DNA from: Oligoflexales bacterium
GTDB lineage: Bacteria; Bdellovibrionota_B; Oligoflexia; Oligoflexales; Bog-1112
Assembly (NCBI GenBank): GCA_045105515.1
Contig: JBGCDR010000153.1
Coordinates: 1 to 11,769, forward strand
Reading direction: 5' to 3'
Length of the DNA: 11,769 nt
Under the pieces are notes generated by a model that was given only the letters and a program-made list of their open reading frames with translations, made no database searches and was not told the DNA's origin. Shown piece after piece: positions 1 through 11,769 of this stretch (the stretch's first letter is position 1; every line of letters begins with the position of its first letter). The position numbers and the translations under genes are program-made.

Positions 1-136
1 GTTTAATCATAGCATGTTGATATTACATATATATTATATGGCGGTTTTTTCTGTTTTTACATCATATCTTTTGCGGTTTCAGTGATTATACATGGAAAGT
101 AGGTGTTAATGGGAGCTTAATCTTCGTCTTGCCAGT
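1..136. repeat. Left arm of a perfect 136-bp inverted repeat bounding the window (possible end of an IS or other repeated element)
   Basis: 1..136 (GTTTAATCATAGCATG...TCTTCGTCTTGCCAGT) is the exact reverse complement of 11632..11767. Identity stops abruptly at 137/11631. No transposase is visible in the window, so the IS interpretation is inference. Confidence 0.97.
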
Positions 137-701
137 AATAATAGTGTGGAGCTATGAGAACGGTAGCAGCTTGACGAAAAACAGTGTTTTTAGGTTTATT
201 TGGGGCAAGTAGGATATCAAGGATTTTGGTCCCAAGCTTACTTTCAAAATTTAAAACCCCTTGATAAACCCTTTGTTCGGGTTTAAGGCTTTCTTCATAT
301 CTTTTTACATTTTCCAAGTCACTCTCTGACTTGATCATGTAAGCTTTTAATTCATTGGTTCTTAGTTTCTCAGCAGGTTGGGTTCTCTTAACTTGTTTCT
401 CTTCGGGGGGTGATTCTATGGCTTCTTCCTCAGTAGATGTAGATTCATTGTCTTCTTCTACAACAGGTGTGGAGATATTATTTTCTTCTTGTGAGGGGCT
501 TTCGATGTCTTCAGCAGCAGGTGTGGAGTCAACACCTTCTGCTAGAGATGTGGATTCTACGGCTTGTTCCTCTACAGAGATGGAATCAGTTACTTGTTGC
601 TCTGCATGTAAGGTATTTGAGAAAATCGCCATGCAAACTATAAACCAAAAGGTATTGATAATAAGTTTTGTTCTATTCCAGTAAGCATTCGCAGTGCTCA
701 T
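117..701 (-). CDS. Secreted hypothetical protein with an acidic Glu/Ser/Thr/Pro repeat linker; possibly 3'-truncated by the terminal repeat
   Basis: ORF track gives 117..746. ATG at 701 is preferred because it has an upstream GGGAG RBS and begins a signal-peptide-like segment (RTK-LIINTFWFIVCMAIFS-NTLHA|EQ). The last codons (WQDED*) lie inside the inverted repeat. Confidence 0.75.
   Translation of the reverse strand: MSTANAYWNRTKLIINTFWFIVCMAIFSNTLHAEQQVTDSISVEEQAVESTSLAEGVDSTPAAEDIESPSQEENNISTPVVEEDNESTSTEEEAIESPPEEKQVKRTQPAEKLRTNELKAYMIKSESDLENVKRYEESLKPEQRVYQGVLNFESKLGTKILDILLAPNKPKNTVFRQAATVLIAPHYYYWQDED
396..575 (-). repeat. Degenerate intragenic tandem repeat, about six units of 27-33 bp (9-11 aa)
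   Basis: Peptide units VEEQAVESTSL/AEGVDSTPA/AEDIESPSQ/EENNISTPV/VEEDNESTST/EEEAIESPP. At DNA level CAGGTGTGGAG occurs at 464..474 and 518..528, and 412..431 matches 553..572 at 18/20. Confidence 0.75.
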
Positions 702-868
702 GAGTAGTCTCCCATATACTCTATTTAATATTTGCTGCCGAAACATAGCACACTCAAAAGTGATATTCTATATGTTTTTATGGGTAGTTTTAGGTTTATT
801 TTTTACTTATTTAAAACAGATGCTTAAGGATCTTGAAATCGAGAGGATGATAGATTTTTGTTGGATTT

Positions 869-1282
869 TCAGGTGTGCCCTTGCCCATCATCTAGGATCA
901 GATCGAGGTAATACTGCTCCAATAAGCGGTGATGGTCTGCAGAAATCTGAGTGATTTGTAGGCTTAGGAGTGCCATGATAGGTTTTCTGAACTTAATTGA
1001 GTTGTTGAATTCCCTGACCAAAGGAGAGGGGGACTTCTCCATTCGGGTGATTGTTCCACAGCAGTTGATGCATTCTGACAACTTTAGAGAGCGTGGGTCA
1101 ATGCTTAACTCAATTAGGGTTTGTTCGTTAAATGGAATAGGCTTAAACGATATCGATAAGATACTTGCTGTAGAAAGACTTAAGCAATAGAAAGCATACT
1201 TGTTTTCGTTTCCAAAGGTGGAGGCCTCTAGTTCCAGCATATCTTCTAAGGAAGGGATCATTTTAGGTATTTTAAATTTCAT
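869..1282 (-). CDS. Hypothetical protein, degenerate PilZ-like domain
   Basis: 137-aa ORF with a PilZ-like beta-barrel pattern: CLSLSTASILSI (vs T-x-D/N-I-S-x-x-G), PFNEQTLIELSIDP, INCCGTITRME (vs I-x-x-x-G-x-V-V-R) and a terminal LQITQISADHHRLLEQYY helix. The RxxxR and DxSxxG motifs are absent. Recognised by eye only. Confidence 0.55.
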   Translation of the reverse strand: MKFKIPKMIPSLEDMLELEASTFGNENKYAFYCLSLSTASILSISFKPIPFNEQTLIELSIDPRSLKLSECINCCGTITRMEKSPSPLVREFNNSIKFRKPIMALLSLQITQISADHHRLLEQYYLDLILDDGQGHT

Positions 1283-1344
1283 AGAACTCTTTTGTTATAG
1301 GTGTGTATCTAATATTTTAAAGCACATCTAAATTTTTGCAAGTT

Positions 1345-3195
1345 TTAGTCCCTTACTCCCTCTACATAGGCAGTGTAAGGTTTGCCGGTATTAGAATCTA
1401 GATCTCCAGGAATGCGGTAGGTCCTTTTTCCTTTTTTCCAGTTTTCATTAAATCCATCGGTTCTGTGATTGTGGTCAGAGCCAAACCTCCACTTCCCCTT
1501 AATAAAATCCCACTTGTTTTTACAGTTCGGACAAATAACGTAATTGCATTTATCGTCTTTCATGAAAGGTTTATAACAATAAGGGCAAGGCCTTAGGTCA
1601 CTTGCCGGATCGTGCATTTTTTGGCCAAATGGATTTTTAGCAAGATATTTTTTATTATCTTCGTGAGCCTGACAATCGACACCTCGGTGATTCTCTCCGC
1701 AGCTAAAACAATAGGTAGACCCACATAAACACTGATAGTGGCCCTGATTATCACAGTCTATTTCGCGAATTAGGTTAGAACAATTAGGTGTAGAACAGTT
1801 TTTTGCTGTTGGGAACATTTCTTTAAAGTAAGCTATGTATGTTTGGAGTTCGACATCTTCTGTAAATTCTTGTAATCCAAGTTGGTGAATATCTTCTCTT
1901 GAAAAAATTTGTTCAACCCCACAGTGGTCGCAATGCAATGGATAGGCATAATCTTTGATTTGTATCTTTAAACTATCTTTAAGACAGTTGAAACATATCT
2001 TAAAAGGTTGGTCGCCAAACTTGCAATTACTATTCATGCAGCTGTGGGCATTGTGCTGGAAGGGCTCGAAGCATATGGGGCAATCATCATCACCGTTTCC
2101 TTCTGGGTGGGGCATTTTGAGATGCTCAAAGCCTTCAAATAGCTTATAAAAGTGGACCTTAGCAGTGGGAGCAGTATAACTTTCTAAGTCTAGTTTTGGC
2201 AACTGATTGTAAAGAATATTTTGAAGTTTATCCAAGATTTTTTTTTGAACCAAGTACGCAGAGAGTGCATAAATTTTTTGATCATTTATGATTTTTTTAG
2301 CGCTGAGACCTTTGGCATTTCTTTCTTCGAGATTTGCGCCCATACTGATTAGAGCCTTGGCAACACGGTAAGACTTTTGCTCGATGGCTAGATGTAAAAA
2401 GCTTTTTTGTTGCCTATCAACTTTCATACCCCGGTGAATATCTGCTCCATTTAAGATTAACAAGATCGCAATTTGATCGTTTTTTTTTAGCATCGCATTT
2501 TGTAGTGGTGATATGCCATTCACTTGTTGATTTACTTGGGCTCCAAAATTGATTGCAGTTCGCACCAAATCTGAAAGAGAATTTTCTATGGCCCATGATA
2601 GAATGCTGCTATGGGTTTTAGCCATAAAATCTTGAACTTTATTGTATTGTCCTGAATTTAGGATTTCTATGATGGTGTCTTCGCTTTTGTTTCTAAGTGC
2701 ATCTCCGATTTCTTGATAGCCAAAAATATTTTCTAGCTGGATTTTGCTCTCCTCCGAGAATACCTTCCATCCATTATCAAAAATATCTGCTTCTGATTTA
2801 GTGAGTTCTTGGGTTCCGTCGGGGAGGGAGTCAAGATTTTTCAGTAATACATCAAGTGATTGCCAATCATGGTTTTTTAATGAAATATCCCATATTTTTT
2901 CATAATCCGAATTTCGGTCACTCTGCTCACCGTGCTCAATTATAATTTCTACAGACTGTGGATGACGCTTATTTAATGCATATAAAATTGGGCTGATATC
3001 TTTATATGGATGGTGAGAATTGCTTAATTCAGGATTAAGGGATAATAGTTTATTAAGTTTGTGGTGCTTTTTTTTCTTAATATATTTGAAGACTTTGGTT
3101 TGAAGAGTGCTGGAAAAATCAAGACTCCATGCAAAGACATTTTTAGGAAGGCTAATAGATAAAACAATAAAAAACAATGATACTAGAGCCTTCAT
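1345..3195 (-). CDS. Secreted ankyrin-repeat + RING1-IBR-RING2 (RBR) E3 ubiquitin ligase-like protein
   Basis: ORF track gives 1345..3204 (GTG). ATG at 3195 follows an AAGGTG RBS and begins the signal peptide MKALVSLFFIVLSISLPKNVFA|W. Ankyrin repeats: SPILYALNKRHPQSVEIIIEHG, SILSWAIENSLSDLVRTAINFGAQVN, SPLQNAMLKKNDQIAILLILNGADIH, SFLHLAIEQKSYRVAKALISMGANLE. RING1 1921..2082 (CPIC...C..C...CFNCLKDSLKIQIK...CDHC). IBR 1672..1797 (CSTPNC...CLCGSTYCFSCGENHRGVDC). RING2 from 1587 downward (RPCPYCYKPFMKDDKCNYVICPNC). Confidence 0.88.
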   Translation of the reverse strand: MKALVSLFFIVLSISLPKNVFAWSLDFSSTLQTKVFKYIKKKKHHKLNKLLSLNPELSNSHHPYKDISPILYALNKRHPQSVEIIIEHGEQSDRNSDYEKIWDISLKNHDWQSLDVLLKNLDSLPDGTQELTKSEADIFDNGWKVFSEESKIQLENIFGYQEIGDALRNKSEDTIIEILNSGQYNKVQDFMAKTHSSILSWAIENSLSDLVRTAINFGAQVNQQVNGISPLQNAMLKKNDQIAILLILNGADIHRGMKVDRQQKSFLHLAIEQKSYRVAKALISMGANLEERNAKGLSAKKIINDQKIYALSAYLVQKKILDKLQNILYNQLPKLDLESYTAPTAKVHFYKLFEGFEHLKMPHPEGNGDDDCPICFEPFQHNAHSCMNSNCKFGDQPFKICFNCLKDSLKIQIKDYAYPLHCDHCGVEQIFSREDIHQLGLQEFTEDVELQTYIAYFKEMFPTAKNCSTPNCSNLIREIDCDNQGHYQCLCGSTYCFSCGENHRGVDCQAHEDNKKYLAKNPFGQKMHDPASDLRPCPYCYKPFMKDDKCNYVICPNCKNKWDFIKGKWRFGSDHNHRTDGFNENWKKGKRTYRIPGDLDSNTGKPYTAYVEGVRD

Positions 3196-3352
3196 AGCAT
3201 TCACCTTTTATTCCGAATTTTAATAAGTGATTAAATCACGGCTTCTCATTCTTTATAAATTTAATATATTAATTACAATAGATTTGTTGGATATGGATTA
3301 TAGAGATGATTTTTAATAAAATAGCATGGGTTTCTATAAAGCACTTTTTTAA

Positions 3353-3406
3353 GGGGATCTCTCTATTTCTCCACTTCGCTAAGCTACATGAGGTCAGTCG
3401 GGGTGA
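3353..3406. repeat. Decayed REP-like palindromic repeat remnant
   Basis: GC-richer patch GGGGATCTCTCTATTTCTCCACTTCGCTAAGCTAC...CAGTCGGGGTGA in an AT-rich spacer. It resembles the units at 10887..10926 and the reverse complement of 11041..11080 (…TCCACTCGCT…GTCGGGATGA). Confidence 0.45.
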
Positions 3407-3555
3407 ATAGGTCTGTTTGGTTCTTATTTCAAGTTTTTTGGAAGTCATTTTGATCTATTTAGATCTTATTTCTAAAAGTTTGGAGCTCATCCCGGGATTA
3501 GACGAGAAATAACCATGTTTTAAATCAGGGACAAATGTTCATGATTATTTGTATG

Positions 3556-4341
3556 CTATTTAATTTTATCAAAGTGTTCCCGCTCCATCAGAAACAGTTC
3601 ATGCATGATCTGTTCTGATAGTTCTTTCATTGCTCGGAGGCCCTTTTTTTGGCTTGTTGGCTTTATTTCTTTTATTGCGCCCGTGAACACTTCATTTTTT
3701 TTAGGAAAAAATGAAAATCTTTTTTGCTGAGCCCCTCTTAGATAGAAACAAACGACCCTAGTTTCAGGTCTTTTTTGCAGGATTTTTCCAACACCATAGG
3801 TTCCAGATTTTGGTTCAATGAGTCCGCTTCTGCTACGAGTTCCTTCAGGAAAAACCATAAAGGTATCTCCTAAGCCTAAAAGATAAAAAACTTTGGCAAA
3901 CACTTTTTGTGTTTCTTCTACAGGTCCTTTGCGAGTGATGGGGAGGCATTTTCCTATAAAGCACAAGAACCTGGAAGCCAAATTACCAGTAAAATTCTTT
4001 TTTTCAGGAAGGTTCCAAGGGAAGGCCTTGTAGTTATGGACAAAACTAAAATTAGAGCCAAGTGCCCAGGTGATAAGAAATGAATCGATCATGGTTAGAT
4101 GATTAGCACAGATCAAAAAAGCTTGCTGAGATGGTCCTTTAATCTTCGCAAACTCCCTTCTCAATTCTTTCACTTGCGGAAATCGGTATCCTAAATAAAA
4201 GTACATCCAGGCCCATATAGCGAAATAAGTAAAAATGACCAATGTGTGGCCAATAAATCTTTGATAGTGAAGCATGCATTTTTCAAGGAAGCTTACATGC
4301 TTGTTTTTTTCTCTTGCCTGCTCAGTAATGGAACGTTCCAT
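3556..4341 (-). CDS. Lysophospholipid / 1-acyl-sn-glycerol-3-phosphate acyltransferase family protein (PlsC-like)
   Basis: Catalytic NH-x4-D motif (CANHLTMID), block III FPEGTRS, PITR block and an N-terminal TM segment (TLVIFTYFAIWAWMYFYLG). ATG at 4341 with upstream AAGGACGGGA is preferred over the ORF-track start at 4425. Confidence 0.92.
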   Translation of the reverse strand: MERSITEQAREKNKHVSFLEKCMLHYQRFIGHTLVIFTYFAIWAWMYFYLGYRFPQVKELRREFAKIKGPSQQAFLICANHLTMIDSFLITWALGSNFSFVHNYKAFPWNLPEKKNFTGNLASRFLCFIGKCLPITRKGPVEETQKVFAKVFYLLGLGDTFMVFPEGTRSRSGLIEPKSGTYGVGKILQKRPETRVVCFYLRGAQQKRFSFFPKKNEVFTGAIKEIKPTSQKKGLRAMKELSEQIMHELFLMEREHFDKIK

Positions 4342-4425
4342 AGTCCCGTCCTTTTCTTGTGAGACATACATTACTATAGGAATCCCTTCTTGCCAAAAAG
4401 TCAAAAGCAAATTCGATATATTCAT

Positions 4426-4549
4426 TAGGACGAACGTTTGACTATTTGTTGAGTGTGGACTACTCTAACTAGGGACCTAAAACAAAGATGCTAAAAATTT
4501 TTAGCCAAATATATAGAACGAACGTATGAATAAAAAGAACGAACGTTTA
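4426..4549. promoter_or_regulatory. Three candidate TetR-family operator sites
   Basis: TAGGACGAACGTTTGA (4426..4441, overlapping the -35), TAGAACGAACGTATGA (4514..4529) and AAGAACGAACGTTTAA (4535..4550). All share an ACG-AA-CGT palindromic core. The last two are 21 bp apart. Confidence 0.7.
4438..4466 (+). promoter_or_regulatory. Sigma70-type promoter of the TolC-RND-TetR operon
   Basis: TTGACT (4438..4443), 17-bp spacer, TACTCT (4461..4466), about 115 bp upstream of the TolC start. Confidence 0.6.
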
Positions 4550-4581
4550 ATTTTCTCCAAGCCTCGGTGGGAGTTTTTAAG

Positions 4582-6042
4582 ATGAGACAAAAATATCTGA
4601 TGACATTAATCATTTGTTTATCTTGGGCCTTTACTTCTTTGAGCAATGTTAGAGAACTGGAGGAGTCTGATTTGCCGGAGCTGCTCAAAAAAAGCACCCA
4701 TAGCGGCCTGGCAGCAAGCAAAGCAAAAGAATCCCTCAGCCAATTTCAATCTGAATCTTTCTCTAATCAATACGATCCACTTGGGTTTATAGATGGTAGC
4801 TATGAAAGTCACACTGGCAACTGGAACCAAATCAACCCAAATGGGAAACCAAGCCCCCTTATAAACACTACTGTAGGAGTTCGCAAGAAATTAGCTTATG
4901 GAGCGCAGATTGAAGGCAGCTTTAACCAGTACAAAAACATGGTAAATATCCTAGGTAATCGCTCTTCAATTTATGGTTTTATTCCACAAATATCGGTGAG
5001 CTTAAACCTTTGGAAGAATCTAGCTGGTTCTTTCGACCAAAACCAGAAGGCTCAGCTGGAAACCCAAATTAAGATAGCTAATCTTGAGTCTCAGGTACGA
5101 AAGAGTTTATTACTCAATCAAGCAAGGATCTTATTTTGGGAGATTGCTGGAGTTGATAAACGCATGAGCATTGTCAAAAAAATGCAGGAAGCTTCACATA
5201 CCCAGGAAAGGCTTGCAAAACAGCGTCAAGCAATGTCTATCGCAGATGCCGGGGAATTAGCACTATATTCTTCTCAAAGTGCAGAACGACATGCAAGGTT
5301 GCTAAATTTAGAGTATCAGCGTAGTGCTCTTGTAGAAGCACTTTCACAGGTAATCCCTAGCTTGGAAGGAAAAGAGATAGTTATAGCATCCGGTAAGGTC
5401 GACGCTGTCAGTGAGCAGGTCTTTGCTTGCACTAAAATAATTAAGAGTCATCCCAAAGCTCCTATCAAGTTTTCCATTTATGAGGGTTTGATAAAGTTAT
5501 TAGAAGAAAAACTTACTTTTGACCAGCAGCTAAATAAGTCCTATCTGCAAGGAGACCTAAGTTTGACAGGGGTGTACTCTCGAACTGGGAGTGAGGGTCA
5601 ATATGCAGATGCTGTAAGCGACTCATGGGATTCTAATCGTAATACCAGTAAACTATTTCTTAATTTTTCATATCCTCTGGGTGAACGTCAAAAAGCTTAT
5701 GATTATAAGCAGGCAGCAGATATGCTAGGTTTTCAATCCCAAAAGTCAGATTGGGAGCTAAGACTTGCTGCAAAACATCAGCATATGTTGAAGTCTGTCG
5801 ACTATCTGCTGCAGGCTGTTCAGGCTCAGAAGATGAATGCTCAGTATCTCAGAACGAGCCTCAAATCAGTAGAAAAAAAGTATGCACAAGCTCGGCTTGA
5901 CGTTTACCAACTCATTGGTGAGCAAGAGCGTAGTCTTAGTAATGATCTTGCGATGATCGATACCCAACTACAAATTGTGAAAGCAGTATTAGAATATTTA
6001 AGTTTGTTTTCAGAGTTTCCATGCAAATTTAATCAACTATAG
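4582..6042 (+). CDS. TolC-family outer membrane efflux protein
   Basis: Signal peptide MRQKYLMTLIICLSWAFTSLS. Two repeats of beta-strands followed by long helices (PQISVSLNLW; LFLNFSYPLG; EKKYAQARLDVYQLIGEQ, vs the TolC-type 'Y..G......L....' motif). It lies directly upstream of an RND gene. GGGAG RBS precedes ATG 4582 (ORF track start 4567). Confidence 0.85.
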   Translation: MRQKYLMTLIICLSWAFTSLSNVRELEESDLPELLKKSTHSGLAASKAKESLSQFQSESFSNQYDPLGFIDGSYESHTGNWNQINPNGKPSPLINTTVGVRKKLAYGAQIEGSFNQYKNMVNILGNRSSIYGFIPQISVSLNLWKNLAGSFDQNQKAQLETQIKIANLESQVRKSLLLNQARILFWEIAGVDKRMSIVKKMQEASHTQERLAKQRQAMSIADAGELALYSSQSAERHARLLNLEYQRSALVEALSQVIPSLEGKEIVIASGKVDAVSEQVFACTKIIKSHPKAPIKFSIYEGLIKLLEEKLTFDQQLNKSYLQGDLSLTGVYSRTGSEGQYADAVSDSWDSNRNTSKLFLNFSYPLGERQKAYDYKQAADMLGFQSQKSDWELRLAAKHQHMLKSVDYLLQAVQAQKMNAQYLRTSLKSVEKKYAQARLDVYQLIGEQERSLSNDLAMIDTQLQIVKAVLEYLSLFSEFPCKFNQL

Positions 6043-6061
6043 TCCTAGAAGGAGGATTAAA

Positions 6062-9000
6062 GTGGAACGATTAGTCAGGTTTTTTATTGAAAATAATCGC
6101 TTAACAATCTTGTTGATGATTTTTTCGGTGGTCACCGGTATCATCGGCGCAACTTCCTTAAATAGGCAAACCTTTCCTTCAGTGGATTTTGCTACCCTCA
6201 TCATTACTACTCCTTATGGGGGAGCGAGTGCTGAAGATATTGAGTTGAAAATTACCAAACCCATAGAAGATGAACTTAAGGCAATCTCGGGATTGAAGGA
6301 TGTAACCTCCACGAGTATGCCTGGTCTCAGCCTTATTAAAGTCCGTATCGATCTCGATGCTCCAAAAAAGAATGAAATTGTTGACGATGTACAAAAAGCC
6401 GTTGATAAGGTTTCTGATTTACCGGTGGACTTAGCCAGTTCGCCACAGATTACAGAACTCAACAGTGATGAAATTTCGGTAGTAGAAATTGGTGTGGTGG
6501 GCCCAAATGATAAAGGCCAGTTAAATCAACTTACGGAAAACTTGAAGGACCAATTAGAGGATATAAAAGGTACCAGTTCAGTAGCGAGTGTTGGTTTTCA
6601 GAAAAGACAATTTCGCATTTACCTCGACAAGGATAAATTAAGTAAATATCACATAGGAATTGACGAAGTTCTCGGGCGTATTCAAGCGAGAAATATCAAT
6701 GTTCCAGGAGGCCTTTTGTCTGAAGTATCAGGGCATAAACTGGTGCGTTTAGATGCAAAGGTGAGCAACCGTGAGGATCTAGCTAAATTATTCATCAGAG
6801 CAAATTTTACTGGAAATAAGATCTATCTTAAAGATGTTGCTGTGGTGGAGGATGCTCGGGAAAAGGCTGAAGTTATGGTTAGCATCAATGGTCAAACAGG
6901 ACACTTGCTTACTGTCACTAAAGCAGCAAGCGCTGATTCGATCGACCTTGCAAAAGATGTTTTGCAGCTCTTAGATTCTGTACAGGCTAAGTGGCCTGAG
7001 CATCAGCTTATTGTGTACCATAACGAAGCACAAAAAATTGACAATAAGCTGTCAAACTTGAGCTCTAATGCAATTTCTGGGTTCATCTTGGTGGTGTTCT
7101 TTTTGATGCTTTTTCTTCCTGGAAAACTAGGATTTATGGCCTCCTTATCACTACCTATCACGGTCCTTCTAACTTTTGCACTGATGCCTTACTTTGGAGC
7201 AACCTTTGATACTATTTCAGTTTTAGCCCTCGTTATTGCACTGGGAATGCTTGTAGATAACTCTGTAGTAGTCACTGAAAATTACACCCGTCTGCTGGGA
7301 ACGGGGCTTGAAAAAAAAGAAGCTGCAGTGGAAGCTGTATCCCAGCTGTGGCTACCAATCAGTGCTACAGTTATGACGACTATCGCGGCGTTCCTCCCCA
7401 TGATGGTGACAAAAGGAGTGATGGGTGAATTTATTAGATTTATTCCGGTGGTCGTGAGTATCTCGCTCCTCGTAAGTTTGTTGGAATCCTTCTTTCTTTT
7501 ACCCTTAAGGCTACAGATATCGGGAAAATTAAAACAATCTGCAAGTGGTGAACCCGTAGATTGGTTTCATGCAGTCCGTTCGAAATTTGAAGGTTTTATG
7601 GGCTATTGTCTTAGATTTCGCTATTTGGTCGCCATAATTTTTGGTCTGATGATTGGGGGGTCTATCGCTTTAACCATTTGGGGCAATAAGTTTATTCTTT
7701 TTCCCCCTGGGGATACTGAAAGGTATGTTGCCCGTTATGAACTTAAGAGTGGGACTCCTGTTGATAAAACTTATTTAGAGTCGCAAAAACTCGTCAAAAA
7801 AATACAAATGGTACTTGCTGATGATGTGGAAAGCATCATCAATAAAGCTGGAGATGGGCAATTTAACCTGATGGATTCTAAAGGTACGAAAGGAGAACAA
7901 AGTGGTCTGGTTATGATAAACCTCACCACTGAAGCAGCGAAAACAAGCAAACATGAGGAAATACTTGCTAAGTTGAGGACTATTGATACGGGATCTTTTC
8001 AAGATTTGCGATTTGAGGCAGAAGTTAATGGACCTCCTGTTGGCTCAGCAATAAAGGTAACATTTAGATCACCTGATTCAGAGCAATTAGAGGGAATGAC
8101 CACACTTATAATGGAACAAGCTGCTAAAATACCGGGAATCTTAAACCTCAAGTTTGCTGAGCAAGCTGGAGGTACGGAGCTTTGGGCGGATTTCGATTAC
8201 GATAAGATTGCTAGGCTTGGGCTAGATGTGGGAGCAATAGGCAATACTGTAAGAACAGCATTAGAAGGAAGTGAGGTTTCCAATGTTGTACTAAATAATA
8301 AGGTGGTAAAAATTAAAGTAGAGCTTAAGGAAGAACAGAAAAGGAATATTGCCCAGATCATGGGGCTTAAGGTTATGGATAAAAAAGGTAACTTGATCCC
8401 TCTCGCAAAGCTGCTGTCCTTTGAGAAAAAACCAGGATCAAAAAATATCAAACATTTTGACTATCAACGTTCGCGAACTTTGGTAGGAGATGTCAACACG
8501 GAAAATACGACCAGCCAGCTTGCAAATGATAGGCTTAAGAATCTTTTCTGGGCTCAGTCCGCACAGTTTCCTCTTGTGAGCTATACAGTGGGAGGTGAAG
8601 AGGAAAGTACTAAAGAATCAATGGAATCTCTAGTTATTGCAATGGGTCTTGCGCTTTTAGGAATTTTTTCCTTGCTTGTGTTTTTGTTTAAATCCTATTT
8701 GCGGCCTGCAATCATAATGCTTTGTATACCATTTGGGTTTATAGGTTATGCCGTTGCCTTCTATTTTCATCAACTACCTGTGAGCTTTCTTTCATTGATT
8801 GGAATGGTGGGTTTGTCTGGTATTGTTGTAAATTCAGGTATTGTGTTGATTAGTTTTATTGACCAAATGCGCCTTGAAGGTTATATGTCGCTCAATGAAC
8901 TACTGAAGAAGGCAAGTGGTATGCGGCTTAAGGCTGTTTTGGTCACAAGTTTAACTACTTTTAGTGGTCTCATTCCCACGGCTTATGGATTAGGGGGTTC

Positions 9001-9232
9001 AGACCCAATGTTGATACCCATGACCATGGCGATGGCTTGGGGGCTTGCAAGTGGGACGTTTTTTACCTTAGTATGGGTGCCATGCGGTTATGCTATTTTA
9101 GAGGATATGTTCTGTCTAACTAAAAATGTACGCGCGTGGTTGAGGCCTGGAAGCACAGCTGTCTTTGGTGATGGTTCAAAAAAGGCGATTCTAAAAGATC
9201 AGGGCAAGGTAGCTTCACAACTCCCAGGTTAG
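6062..9232 (+). CDS. RND efflux transporter permease subunit (AcrB/AcrD/AcrF family)
   Basis: 1056 aa with the (1 TM + periplasmic domain + 5 TM) x2 layout. Motifs YGGASAEDIELKITKPIE, TM4 ALGMLVDNSVVVTEN, TTIAAFLPM, GIVVNSGIVL, RLKAVLVTSLTTFSGLIP. GTG start with AAGGAGG RBS at 6049..6055. Confidence 0.96.
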   Translation: MERLVRFFIENNRLTILLMIFSVVTGIIGATSLNRQTFPSVDFATLIITTPYGGASAEDIELKITKPIEDELKAISGLKDVTSTSMPGLSLIKVRIDLDAPKKNEIVDDVQKAVDKVSDLPVDLASSPQITELNSDEISVVEIGVVGPNDKGQLNQLTENLKDQLEDIKGTSSVASVGFQKRQFRIYLDKDKLSKYHIGIDEVLGRIQARNINVPGGLLSEVSGHKLVRLDAKVSNREDLAKLFIRANFTGNKIYLKDVAVVEDAREKAEVMVSINGQTGHLLTVTKAASADSIDLAKDVLQLLDSVQAKWPEHQLIVYHNEAQKIDNKLSNLSSNAISGFILVVFFLMLFLPGKLGFMASLSLPITVLLTFALMPYFGATFDTISVLALVIALGMLVDNSVVVTENYTRLLGTGLEKKEAAVEAVSQLWLPISATVMTTIAAFLPMMVTKGVMGEFIRFIPVVVSISLLVSLLESFFLLPLRLQISGKLKQSASGEPVDWFHAVRSKFEGFMGYCLRFRYLVAIIFGLMIGGSIALTIWGNKFILFPPGDTERYVARYELKSGTPVDKTYLESQKLVKKIQMVLADDVESIINKAGDGQFNLMDSKGTKGEQSGLVMINLTTEAAKTSKHEEILAKLRTIDTGSFQDLRFEAEVNGPPVGSAIKVTFRSPDSEQLEGMTTLIMEQAAKIPGILNLKFAEQAGGTELWADFDYDKIARLGLDVGAIGNTVRTALEGSEVSNVVLNNKVVKIKVELKEEQKRNIAQIMGLKVMDKKGNLIPLAKLLSFEKKPGSKNIKHFDYQRSRTLVGDVNTENTTSQLANDRLKNLFWAQSAQFPLVSYTVGGEEESTKESMESLVIAMGLALLGIFSLLVFLFKSYLRPAIIMLCIPFGFIGYAVAFYFHQLPVSFLSLIGMVGLSGIVVNSGIVLISFIDQMRLEGYMSLNELLKKASGMRLKAVLVTSLTTFSGLIPTAYGLGGSDPMLIPMTMAMAWGLASGTFFTLVWVPCGYAILEDMFCLTKNVRAWLRPGSTAVFGDGSKKAILKDQGKVASQLPG

Positions 9233-9253
9233 TGTTTGTATAGGGTTTTTATA

Positions 9254-9883
9254 ATGCAGAGTGTTGTCGATACAAAAACAAAGATTCTTCAGGCAGCTTT
9301 CAAATTGTTTTCCGATAATGGCTTTGAAGGCACCTCGATGCGAGAAATTGCAAAACAAGCTACAGTTAATTTATCTGCAATTAACTATCATTTTCAGAGT
9401 AAGGAAAAGCTCTGTAGCGAAGTTTTAAATAAGGCAGGGTATGATTTAAGGGAAGAGTTAAAGGAGATCGCTGAAAACCATCCTGACTTAAGGTTTGTCG
9501 AACTAGTCCCTGAGGTTTACCAACACCTTGTGAGTATTTCAGACCGATTTCAGTCATGTTTTCGCATCTTGTCGACTGGTAACGTGGTGCTTGACCTTAG
9601 CTCAGATGTGGATGGTCAAATGGGTGGAGGGCCAGGTGCGCAGTATTTGATGGAAAGGTTGACCAAAGAAGTTGGGGATCAAGTTCCCTTCGAAGATCGT
9701 TGCTGGGTTGTGAATGCAGTATATTGTCAAATGACCCACCTTATCTTACTCTGTAATACTAGCATTGCGCAGATGGAATATGTCAAAGCACAATTTGAAA
9801 CTGAAAAAGTGCAGCATAGACTCCGGAGGCTTTGCCAAGCTCTCGTGCGTGAAATTACTGATCCAATTGAAATGATTCATTAA
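9254..9883 (+). CDS. TetR/AcrR family transcriptional regulator
   Basis: N-terminal HTH TKTKILQAAFKLFSDNGFEGTSMREIAKQATVNLSAINYHFQSKEKL. ATG 9254 is preferred to the TTG at 9236. Confidence 0.95.
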   Translation: MQSVVDTKTKILQAAFKLFSDNGFEGTSMREIAKQATVNLSAINYHFQSKEKLCSEVLNKAGYDLREELKEIAENHPDLRFVELVPEVYQHLVSISDRFQSCFRILSTGNVVLDLSSDVDGQMGGGPGAQYLMERLTKEVGDQVPFEDRCWVVNAVYCQMTHLILLCNTSIAQMEYVKAQFETEKVQHRLRRLCQALVREITDPIEMIH

Positions 9884-10758
9884 GAACGACTTAACAGTTG
9901 GTTGGGCAGACTCCTAATCAAATTTAAGCTTTCCCAGGTGCCTGTATACTGATGGTCTAAAATGGTGTTGCGGGCAAAAATCGGAACTTTTTTAAAGCTA
10001 ACAACTTTGATGGACAGATGAAATGTATGCTGGCCTTTGATATTGTAGTAAAAGTTGATGGTGCGTCCACCCACCGAGTTTTTGTTGGGAGTAATATCAT
10101 ATTTTCCAGAGCTTGTGGTGGTGATTCGTTCTAGTGGTAGAGGAATACTCCCAGCTATTTCGGTCCAGGTGGACTCCATGTTAATCGGAACCTCAGCACC
10201 AAGAAAGCTATCTAAATCCTCATAAATCTTTACACTCACTCTGGTTTCAATGGATGCGAGTTTGATTCCTAATATTTTAATTTTAGTCAGAGTGCTAACT
10301 TGCAAATTTTTTCGGTCAATAGATTGAACGGTGGTACCATTAAAAGCACAATCGAGGTAGCTTGAGGTCAAAAAATGCTTACGGCTAAAAAATTTTGGTA
10401 GTCTATTTTGGTAGATGATTGCAGACTTTCCCAAAGTTAAAAATCCTGAATCTAAGTCAGTATCTAGATGTAACCTGTCAATATCCCAGTCTGCAAAGTC
10501 TCCGAGATTTTCCGGATAAAACTCCTCAAGAGCCATTTGCATCTTGCCCTTGCTTAACCAATGAATATCGGGAAAAAATTCTAGGAGCGGCTCTTTCTTG
10601 ATCTGTTTATGATGAAAGTTAACTCCCACAGATTTTTTTACATCCATTCTTTTTTGGAGGAATTCGTAAATTTCGTTAGCGTTAGATTCGCCTGTGAGAA
10701 TACATACCATAATTAAAAAGATTGATAGTTTTAGACAATTTTTTTCCCATACCATCAT
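9880..10758 (-). CDS. Secreted hypothetical protein
   Basis: 292-aa ORF with an AGGAG RBS upstream and a signal-peptide-like N-terminus (KLSIFLIMVCILTGESNA|NE). Its stop overlaps the TetR stop (TTAA 9880..9883). No family recognised. Confidence 0.8.
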   Translation of the reverse strand: MMVWEKNCLKLSIFLIMVCILTGESNANEIYEFLQKRMDVKKSVGVNFHHKQIKKEPLLEFFPDIHWLSKGKMQMALEEFYPENLGDFADWDIDRLHLDTDLDSGFLTLGKSAIIYQNRLPKFFSRKHFLTSSYLDCAFNGTTVQSIDRKNLQVSTLTKIKILGIKLASIETRVSVKIYEDLDSFLGAEVPINMESTWTEIAGSIPLPLERITTTSSGKYDITPNKNSVGGRTINFYYNIKGQHTFHLSIKVVSFKKVPIFARNTILDHQYTGTWESLNLIRSLPNQLLSRS

Positions 10759-10886
10759 TTCGGTTTACTCCTTTTTAAATTTTTATAACATTAGCCATTA
10801 ATTGGTAAACCATGTCAAAAAAAAAAGATCTAGTTAATTTTAGCTTTATTAAAAACTATGGCCTATAATTTTTTATTGAACTGGAG

Positions 10887-11080
10887 GCGATTTATCCGTT
10901 CGTATGACTCAGTCGAAATGACAGTTTGTGATGATAATTGGTTTTTAATGTTATCCCTCGGCTGCGCTCTCGGGATAACATTGGAGGCTCCTCTTTTATA
11001 GTCTGAGTGATGAGATTTTTGTCGACGGATCAGAGGCATCTACTGTCATCCCGACGGAGCGGAGCGAGTGGAGGGATCCC
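10887..11080. repeat. Cluster of three REP-like (TGTC/CGTC-tagged type) palindromic units
   Basis: 10887..10926 aligns without gaps (25/40) to the reverse complement of 11041..11080 (TACTGTCATCCCGACGGAGCGGAGCGAGTGGAGGGATCCC). The middle unit 10947..10982 (ATCCCTCGGCTGCGCTCTCGGGATAACA) forms a perfect 11-bp stem AATGTTATCCC/GGGATAACATT. Confidence 0.7.
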
Positions 11081-11097
11081 TAGCAATAAATTAAGCT

Positions 11098-11589
11098 TCA
11101 AAAAGATTCTTCATTCAGGATTTTTTCTATCACCTTCTCTGATATTTCCTCGGAAACTACACTCCAAGTTTGCTCTGATTCATTAAACTCTAAGAACCTA
11201 ATTTTCTCTTCCTTTAGTATGCTGAGGATATCTTTAACAATGTGGGCTTTGTTTTTTTTATCAAGAGTTTGATAAATAAATCGATTTGCTACAATCCGAT
11301 TTATAAATTTTGAATTCCCGGGATGTTTATTCGTTTTAAAATATTTCCCGATAACAATGTCATTCTCAGTACATTTGATTGGATCTGTGAAAAATTCGCA
11401 GAAAGGTAAAGCTTCGTCTTGATTGAGATTGAGTAACGGAGGTAATTCAAAATTATTATTGCTGACATCATTAAATGCATCTTTTTCAATCAAATCATCA
11501 AATGATCTTTCATGAACAATTTCTGGAAATGGAGAGGAAAAACAAACAGTAGAAACCGAAATTTGAGTAATCAAGTAAAAGATTTTCAT
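11098..11589 (-). CDS. Secreted protein with a C-terminal DUF6824-like (diatom/stramenopile-type) domain
   Basis: GAGG RBS and a signal-peptide-like N-terminus MKIFYLITQISVSTVCFS. Residues 74-160 (ENDIVIGK...NKHPGNSKFINRI...Y...DKKNKAHIVKDILSIL....RFL.......WSVVSEE) match the recalled pattern DVLxGRG..NxHPGNxxFRxxI...Y....K..I..xI...GRFL....W.EV. Match is by eye. Confidence 0.7.
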   Translation of the reverse strand: MKIFYLITQISVSTVCFSSPFPEIVHERSFDDLIEKDAFNDVSNNNFELPPLLNLNQDEALPFCEFFTDPIKCTENDIVIGKYFKTNKHPGNSKFINRIVANRFIYQTLDKKNKAHIVKDILSILKEEKIRFLEFNESEQTWSVVSEEISEKVIEKILNEESF

Positions 11590-11631
11590 AAGCGCCTCAT
11601 TATATAGTTTAAAGAAAGGATGAGATATTTA

Positions 11632-11767
11632 ACTGGCAAGACGAAGATTAAGCTCCCATTAACACCTACTTTCCATGTATAATCACTGAAACCGCAAAAG
11701 ATATGATGTAAAAACAGAAAAAACCGCCATATAATATATATGTAATATCAACATGCTATGATTAAAC
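11632..11767. repeat. Right arm of the 136-bp inverted repeat (probably continues to 11769 and beyond)
   Basis: Exact reverse complement of 1..136. It begins ACTGGCAAGACGAAGATTAAGCTCCC, 42 bp upstream of the start codon at 11589. Confidence 0.97.
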
Positions 11768-11769
11768 GA

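Follow-up and report, generated by a model that had tools for sequence, protein, structure and literature searches.

A bacterial homologue of RBR ubiquitin ligases with ankyrin repeats, a one-zinc RING2 and a distinctive C-terminal tail in an Oligoflexales genome

We describe here a gene of an Oligoflexales bacterium whose product is related to the RBR (RING1-IBR-RING2) class of eukaryotic ubiquitin ligases (E3s). It lies in contig JBGCDR010000153.1 of assembly GCA_045105515.1, the full 11,769 nucleotides of which are referred to here as the window, where it occupies positions 1345..3195 of the minus strand with its stop codon at 1345..1347; the gene is intact and encodes 616 residues. The protein is a true homologue of the eukaryotic RBR ligases by both sequence and fold, and the gene is bacterial and part of this Oligoflexales metagenome-assembled genome (MAG). 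We consider it rather likely that the product acts as an exported, host-directed ubiquitin ligase of the RBR type, dependent on Cys550 within RING2.

Results

Homology to RBR ubiquitin ligases

The Pfam IBR profile (PF01485) matches residues 458-508 of the protein with 27.3 bits against a cut-off of 24.3, and with 33.1 bits in the genome search. In a single-sequence phmmer search of the Protein Data Bank (PDB), query residues 397-590 align with residues 204-400 of ARIH1/HHARI (E 1.2e-5), and ARIH1 is the sole non-ankyrin family among the 60 best matches listed. A profile built from 35 family members matches ARIH1 at 5.4e-26, ARIH2 at 3e-23, HOIL-1 at 1.4e-16, CUL9 at 1.9e-15, Parkin at 2.6e-10, HOIP at 3.2e-10 and RNF216 at 4.1e-10, and all 46 of its PDB matches are RBR or RING proteins. 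The HMMER register over the C-terminal 250 residues places C537, C540, C550, C555 and C558 on ARIH1 C344, C347, C357, C362 and C367 respectively, and it is C357 that we take to be the active-site residue of ARIH1. The column of this residue is cysteine in 113 of 113 aligned RBR modules, and four IBR cysteines (C467, C472, C489 and C491) are unchanged across the 35 family members.

The predicted fold points the same way. An AlphaFold2 model of residues 355-616 has a mean predicted local distance difference test score (pLDDT) of 87.0, and the 50 PDB chains that Foldseek matches to it at E <=0.001 are all RBR ligases. VIA-align superposes the RING1-IBR part (model residues 13-166) on HOIL-1L with Z 9.1 (root-mean-square deviation, rmsd, 4.1; 138 residues), on ARIH2 with Z 8.9 and on Parkin with Z 8.2 (rmsd 3.1), and the RING1 fold resembles that of the RNF144A-type structure 1wim (Z 7.7, rmsd 2.9 over 88 residues) and HOIP RING1 (Z 6.7). 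The closest ESM Atlas clusters are all eukaryotic RBR-type transferases, with a best score of 0.95.

An earlier reading of the DNA (the sequence-only reading) had recognized three Cys/His clusters in RBR order, and had placed a cysteine it called C553 at the catalytic position of a RING2 spaced as in HHARI. The homology does run across the whole RING1-IBR-RING2 module, the spacing and the codon position (1546..1548) are as it gave them, and the alignment register puts this cysteine, our Cys550, on ARIH1 C357. That reading numbered residues from an upstream GTG, so that its C540, C543, C553, C558 and C561 are three higher than C537, C540, C550, C555 and C558 in the 616-residue numbering used here. 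It had also proposed domain profiles and a structure model as checks, and both gave the expected domains: IBR (above its cut-off) and Ank_2 are matched, and the pLDDT 87 model retrieves RBR folds and no others among its 50 Foldseek matches.

A family of related proteins

The sequence-only reading had treated this gene on its own, a picture that gives way to that of a family. HMMER searches of 1.84 billion representative proteins return 164 matches at E <=1e-3, 23 at <=1e-10 and 5 at <=1e-30, and we examined 153 sequences, consisting of the best 150 matches with the query and its orthologues. The motif R.Y[RLSK][VIL].G[DE], which marks a distinctive C-terminal tail, is present in 32 of the 153 and a canonical two-zinc RING2 in 79; the two never occur together, none of the 32 tail-type sequences having the two-zinc pattern. 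About 30 sequence clusters combine a one-zinc RING2 with the tail (in the form PRxYRVPGD), and those that carry a name are Oligoflexia. The N-terminal parts of the tail-type proteins vary, with ankyrin repeats, a YdcK beta-solenoid, a TIG domain or nothing recognizable, and their RING2 often matches Pfam IBR_1 or IBR_2. Among proteins that start with Met and contain a full RBR, the N-terminus is hydrophobic in 15 of the 22 that are tail-type and in 9 of the 14 others with a single RING2 zinc site, as opposed to 5 of 56 two-zinc RBRs, which are mostly eukaryotic. Some relatives have lipoprotein-type signals (L-x-G-C).

Twenty relatives were looked up, none of which is eukaryotic: four are named, all as 'Oligoflexia bacterium' (from two MAGs, with one of the four encoded on a 162-kb contig), and one cluster is listed as '[bacterium]'. 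They are annotated as 'hypothetical protein', apart from one 'ankyrin repeat protein'. The ten best two-zinc matches, by comparison, include three from Caenorhabditis brenneri, one from Planoprotostelium, three called 'ariadne-1' and three without a name. A word-indexed protein search with the RBR region alone returned orthologues only, and scans of genome contigs and of metagenome contigs with the orthologue alignment found no relative. The full-length orthologues number three, at 72, 63 and 57% identity to the query.

In a quick, unrooted tree of 113 RBR modules, calculated with the RING2-end and tail columns excluded and with 47 of 110 inner branches left open, 23 of the 25 tail-type rows fall into one group of 32 rows, together with eight one-zinc and one two-zinc module (SH-like approximate likelihood ratio, SH-aLRT, 86), and this group adjoins one of 46 mostly Ariadne-like rows (SH-aLRT 92). 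The tree is compatible with a tail-type clade beside the Ariadne-like RBRs and does not establish it; because the backbone is weak and unrooted, we draw no conclusion as to a single origin or the direction of transfer. IBR matches are found in 5 of 15 other genomes of the same bacterial family versus none of 115 genomes from 18 other families in a sample of the phylum, and they are likewise absent from 401 evenly drawn genomes of the class holding Thiomicrorhabdus and from 14 control genomes. Four RBR-like proteins in this bacterial family, at loci L009, L014 and L017 of genome G005 and L010 of genome G006, have a long insert in RING2 and, where domains were named by eye, long pentapeptide-like repeats or a C-terminal part resembling a sulfatase-modifying factor.

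The gene, its domains and its predicted export signal

The open frame spans 1345..3204 (minus strand) and would give 619 residues if started at the GTG at 3204, but the ATG at 3195 is the likely start, because AAGGTG stands 6 nt upstream of it and all three orthologues start at the same MK. The gene is intronless with a Shine-Dalgarno site (3202..3207), as the sequence-only reading had it, and its view of the N-terminus as a Sec-type signal peptide also agrees with what we see. The N-terminal sequence MKALVSLFFIVLSISLPKNVFA-WS opens with a short charged stretch, continues into a hydrophobic core and has small residues at -3 and -1, residues 2-15 are modelled as a helix in the full-length AlphaFold2 structure, and the [YF][AS]-WS junction after the signal-like segment is conserved in all four orthologues (query included); overall it looks like a Sec signal peptide, as judged from these predicted features. 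A promoter and terminator scan was uninformative, with nine promoter-like sites against 8.7 expected and no terminators.

The full-length model (pLDDT 87.9, predicted TM-score 0.71) has the order signal helix, solenoid, long helix, RBR and tail (Table 1). At least four ankyrin repeats had been expected; ankyrin repeats are indeed present, within a longer solenoid of about 9-10 helix pairs across residues 31-305, where pLDDT is mostly >90. RING1 has eight conserved cysteines, with atypical spacing between ligands 3 and 5. The tail is modelled with pLDDT 82-89 at residues 590-616 and 49-56 at residues 570-589; Pfam gives no match to it at E up to 10, the 35-member profile aligns it to no PDB chain, and it is barely covered by the fold searches. 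Pfam finds no Ariadne domain after RING2, where 47 residues follow, and no UBA-like domain either. Invariant columns among the four orthologues make up 94% of RING2/Rcat, 70% of the tail, 67% of the IBR, 60% of RING1, 29% of the ankyrin region and 9% of the signal peptide, a gradient of the kind expected if a conserved catalytic core were joined to a fast-evolving targeting part.

Table 1. Features of the RBR-like gene and its product, with positions in the window
Feature	Position	Strand	Basis or details
Shine-Dalgarno-like AAGGTG	3202..3207	-	6 nt ahead of ATG; read off the sequence
Signal-peptide-like N-terminus, residues 1-22	3130..3195	-	MK, hydrophobic core, VFA-WS
Ankyrin-type helical-repeat solenoid, residues 30-305	2281..3108	-	Pfam core and full-length model
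Ank_2 Pfam core, residues 199-292	2320..2601	-	E 6.5e-13
Long connecting helix, residues 309-334	2194..2271	-	Full-length model
RING1, C372-C425	1921..2082	-	Eight Cys, C-x2-C-x10-C-x4-C-x9-C-x2-C-x17-C-x2-C
IBR domain, Pfam residues 458-508	1672..1824	-	Ligands C467, C472, C489, C491, C496, C499, H503, C508
RING2/Rcat, one zinc site, residues 537-569	1489..1587	-	C537-x2-C540-x9-C550-x4-C555-x2-C558, then KNKWDFIKGKW
Cys550 codon (predicted catalytic)	1546..1548	-	Aligned with ARIH1 C357
Tyr552 codon	1540..1542	-	Position of ARIH1 His359
C-terminal tail, residues 570-616	1348..1488	-	Family-specific; motif RTYRIPGD...TGKPYTAY

Genomic setting of the contig

The genome amounts to 6.29 Mb in 461 contigs, with 90.9% completeness and 4.8% estimated contamination, and the nearest relatives of its RpoB are a 'MAG: Oligoflexales bacterium' (72%) and an 'uncultured Oligoflexia bacterium' (64%). 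The sequence-only reading had placed the gene in a clearly bacterial neighbourhood and had suggested a check of read continuity, and the two are in accord. Around it the window encodes an acyltransferase, a pump of the AcrB type (E 2e-169) and a TetR regulator; the GC content of the contig is 0.385 against 0.383 for the genome, and its tetranucleotide distance lies at the 29th percentile of contigs >=5 kb. The stretch is present in three sequencing runs of one study, labelled plant metagenome, which are possibly the source of the assembly. In two of the three, one Logan contig (11,547 nt) extends over window positions 112..11658 with neither differences nor joints, linking the gene to the AcrB and TetR genes without a break, and in the third a 2,787-nt contig covers 112..2898.

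Contig depth is 36.1, 42.8 and 11.3 in runs X1, X2 and X3, where contigs sharing its end repeat have 37 and 34.3, 43.5 and 40.6, and 13, respectively. This repeat is an identical sequence of about 140 nt found in inverted orientation at the two ends of the window (1..~140 and 11626..11769). Of the 31 matches that it gives in the genome, 30 lie at contig ends (about 29 other ends), and its summed depth of ~850-1,450 (end bins, two runs) is ~25-35x the contig's 36-43. The repeat is probably one end of an insertion sequence that has multiplied strongly and thereby breaks up the assembly, and bacteria that are adapting to a host typically show expansions of this kind.

Two open reading frames without a family match, at 117..746 and 869..1282 (both minus strand), lie just downstream of the RBR-like gene on the same strand, and may be co-transcribed with it; the 209-residue product of the former has a hydrophobic segment followed by an acidic stretch rich in Glu, Ser and Thr. 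On the plus strand, a 491-codon open reading frame (4567..6042) without a Pfam match at E up to 0.01 sits directly upstream of the AcrB gene, where a membrane-fusion or outer-membrane partner would be expected. A 163-residue DUF6824 protein (E 4.7e-14) is encoded at 11098..11589 (minus strand); this domain occurs at five loci in the genome and in none of the 14 control genomes, and the DUF6824 proteins may be another host-related family.

Ubiquitin-related, transport and secretion genes in the genome

Pfam IBR matches occur at seven loci in the genome, and seven open reading frames match the RBR family profile. One of these, on contig C56 (4804..7182, minus strand), encodes a 792-residue protein in which numerous ankyrin repeats precede RING1 and IBR. 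It ends right after the IBR, with no RING2 downstream in any frame, and is either a truncated RBR or a two-domain form. Another, on contig C355 (3521..7045, minus strand), encodes a 1,174-residue protein, predicted to be exported, in which an IBR without RING1 or RING2 is joined to a USP-type deubiquitinase; as its domains are predicted, it is an unusual fusion of ligase and deubiquitinase parts. The genome has six USP/UCH loci, whereas none of the 14 control genomes has one. The sequence-only reading had noted no E2 (ubiquitin-conjugating enzyme) or ubiquitin-like gene in the window, and we likewise find no E2 (UQ_con) or ubiquitin gene either there or in the 90.9%-complete genome, E1 (ubiquitin-activating enzyme) genes not having been searched for.

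Six full-length TLC/NTT nucleotide transporters are encoded, on contigs C74, C181, C166, C40, C393 and C190, which is unusually many for a 6.3-Mb genome and fits energy or nucleotide parasitism. There is also a seemingly complete type II secretion cluster (contig C36, 43000..62000) with two copies each of GspC and GspD, and E, F, G, J, K and pseudopilins; the GspC and GspD copies are tandem duplicates within the cluster. A weak candidate for the L component of this system on contig C60 was rejected, as it is PilM of a type IV pilus cluster.

Discussion

Proposed function and the evidence against it

The sequence, the fold and the genomic context suggest a model in which this protein acts on the ubiquitin system of a host. 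The sequence-only reading had proposed a horizontally acquired ligase that works with host E1, E2 and ubiquitin and selects substrates through its ankyrins, and the homology, the bacterial DNA and the export-type N-terminus bear it out in part. The bacterium probably lives with, and inside, a eukaryotic host, and the presence of USP genes in a genome where no ubiquitin of its own has been found speaks for a host ubiquitin system as the target. In the model, the signal peptide would take the protein through Sec, the type II secretion system would be the most likely route across the outer membrane, and access to the host cytosol would be gained by some further route. There, as homology suggests, RING1 would bind a host E2~ubiquitin, and ubiquitin would move to Cys550 in RING2, the residue and its conservation being observed and the chemistry being predicted, and then to a substrate that the ankyrin solenoid would hold. 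An aromatic W-x-[FW] stretch, along with the C-terminal tail, may replace the second zinc knuckle of RING2, with the tail either buttressing the catalytic domain or forming an acceptor site, rather as the LDD would in HOIP. Tyr at the His position may slow discharge or direct it to another acceptor, and Tyr together with the new tail might give an unusual acceptor or linkage preference. The broader proposition, that there is an exported, Oligoflexia-centred RBR family with swappable targeting domains, a one-zinc RING2 and a beta-tail, active through Cys550 with host E2s, seems to us evenly balanced.

Several observations weigh against a host-directed, Cys550-dependent ligase. The sequence-only reading had given RING2 the spacing of HHARI and Parkin and had not noted the 47-residue tail. 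Just one zinc site of RING2 is kept. The second is absent, with ARIH1 C372 replaced by Asp563, C375 by a gap and no later cysteine available, and Tyr552, which is Tyr in all four orthologues, takes the place of ARIH1 His359. RING2 falls below every Pfam Rcat cut-off (IBR_1 at 17.1 bits versus 27), and its weak IBR_1 match spans just profile positions 4-31 of 47. As for the route, 21 cysteines and five predicted zinc sites, against six in a canonical RBR, would have to cross the oxidising periplasm via Sec and type II secretion, type II secretion delivers outside the bacterium and not into the host cytosol, and a type III secretin is found only below the cut-off and TssC has no match in the 90.9%-complete genome. 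Finally, no orthologue turned up in the genome from the same genus or in the family's 14 other genomes, and the RBR-like gene is therefore accessory.

Alternative explanations

The departures in RING2 lend themselves to an alternative in which the protein is a degenerate RBR without ligase activity, acting as a decoy, inhibitor or scaffold on host E2~Ub or ubiquitin chains, with Cys550 kept for structural reasons. The loss of the second zinc site and of the His after the cysteine, the sub-threshold Pfam scores of RING2, and the partial modules kept by the two paralogues on contigs C56 and C355 all speak for it. However, RING2 is the most conserved part of the protein, with a cysteine at the catalytic position that is invariant in all 113 modules. 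To our knowledge the catalytic RING2 cysteine is not a zinc ligand in solved RBRs, and a purely structural reason for its conservation is weak on that account. The position two residues beyond the catalytic cysteine is occupied by His in 13 of the 25 tail-type relatives and in 49 of the 64 two-zinc RBRs, and Tyr stands there in 5 of the 64. In HHARI, the active-site cysteine of which is located on RING2, the available text of Dove et al. 2017 (PMC5462532) describes an H359A mutant in which the E3~Ub intermediate becomes detectable and the thioester is still formed, and the His therefore matters for discharge and not for loading. We regard a degenerate, inactive RBR as unlikely.

A second alternative is that the protein works as a plain RING-type E3, with RING1 driving direct transfer from E2~Ub to lysine and RING2 and the tail binding substrate or ubiquitin. 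It draws on the RING1 Zn-loop II, which is a canonical C-x2-C (C422-D-H-C425) and not the extended C-x4-C of HHARI, an extension tied to holding E2~Ub open (Dove et al. 2017, PMC5462532, in the text available). The same source gives a range of C-X2-4-C for RBR loops and presents HOIP as a short-loop yet true RBR, so the C-x2-C loop, which is within this range and is short as in HOIP, does not exclude RBR membership; it also describes UBE2L3 as an E2 that is unable to transfer directly to lysine. The strict conservation of the RING2 cysteine argues for a thioester step, and direct transfer by RING1 appears improbable.

We give a similarly low standing to a third alternative, that this is an envelope or surface protein without contact to ubiquitin, in which the zinc modules have been re-used for other binding or thiol chemistry. 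The signal peptide of the query and the lipoprotein-type signals of some relatives would suit such a location, and searches for a type III secretin, TssC and type II secretion identified no route to the host cytosol. Against this stand the full three-domain RBR order with the catalytic cysteine retained, and a genome that has six USP-type genes, one of them fused to an IBR, yet no ubiquitin of its own that we could find. The last alternative, that DNA of a eukaryote or a giant virus was wrongly assembled or binned into a bacterial genome, is close to refuted: although the nearest ESM Atlas RBR clusters are all eukaryotic, contamination of the bin is estimated at 4.8% and the three runs are possibly the source of the assembly, separate Logan contigs from two of these runs span the gene, AcrB and TetR without joints, the composition is normal for the genome, the gene is free of introns and has a Shine-Dalgarno site, the end repeats are common to ~29 other contig ends with contigs of equal depth in three runs, and the relatives named by organism are all Oligoflexia MAGs, one on a 162-kb contig.

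Novelty and significance

Full-text literature searches yielded no report of a bacterial RBR ligase, with the qualification that supplementary tables of effector surveys might list IBR domains. The papers that pair 'RBR' with bacterial terms concern a Legionella ligase targeting host ARIH2, or RBR/Rbr as an abbreviation of rubrerythrin, and were set aside. According to the available text of a review (29 Oct 2026), counterparts of the HECT, RBR, RCR and RZ ligases in bacteria 'have not yet been identified', which concurs with the sequence-only reading that no bacterial RBR had been characterized, and the available part of PMC7971504 names RBR just as a host class.

If the proposed host-directed ligase function is correct, this would be the first time that a eukaryotic E3 class working by transthiolation is found to have a homologous counterpart in bacteria, in a field where effectors that hijack ubiquitin are a major theme of host-microbe biology. 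A natural one-zinc RBR that has gained a C-terminal element would make it possible to test what is indispensable in the RBR mechanism, and the protein would offer a compact, autoinhibition-free RBR for study. The gene would also single out a little-known lineage of Oligoflexales as one that manipulates the ubiquitin of its host heavily, with seven RBR/IBR-like genes, six for USPs and six for nucleotide importers.

Comparison with known systems

The closest known proteins are ARIH1/HHARI and ARIH2 (PDB 4kbl, 5udh and 7od1), which share the RING1-IBR-RING2 order, give the best sequence and fold matches and, for ARIH1/HHARI, share the first RING2 zinc site and the spacing of the catalytic cysteine with the query; the named proteins among the top two-zinc matches of the large protein search are likewise Ariadne proteins. 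Unlike ARIH1 and ARIH2, the query has neither the UBA-like and Ariadne autoinhibitory domains nor the C372/C375 site, and it differs from ARIH1/HHARI further in its Tyr for His359, its C-x2-C loop II, its signal peptide, its 47-residue tail and its bacterial gene.

ANKIB1 is a eukaryotic ankyrin and RBR protein, and the sequence-only reading had likened the architecture of the query to it. The layout is indeed the same, with ankyrin repeats N-terminal to the RBR in both as far as the general architecture of ANKIB1 goes, but the query has no Ariadne domain after RING2. Because of this, and because relatives carry other N-terminal modules on the same core, the likeness is probably convergent.

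HOIP/RNF31 offers a different parallel, in that its RBR-LDD (PDB 5edv) has a C-terminal extension after RING2, as does the query, and a short RING1 loop II is common to both. The LDD of HOIP shapes the acceptor site. Nonetheless, there is no detectable sequence or fold likeness between the LDD and the tail of the query, the profile alignment stops before the tail, and the tail has just 47 residues.

Bacteria also have Cys-dependent E3 effectors of their own, in the NEL (IpaH/SspH), HECT-like (SopA/NleL) and SidC classes, which are type III or type IV substrates. By analogy, the Oligoflexales protein is expected to be like them in taking ubiquitin from a host E2 onto its own cysteine. It differs from them in its Sec-type signal and in being a true homologue of a host class, the bacterial E3 classes being described as distinct from, and not homologous to, the host ligases in the available text of the review dated 29 Oct 2026. 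The protein appears to be a known enzyme class in a new domain of life, with its catalytic domain rebuilt.

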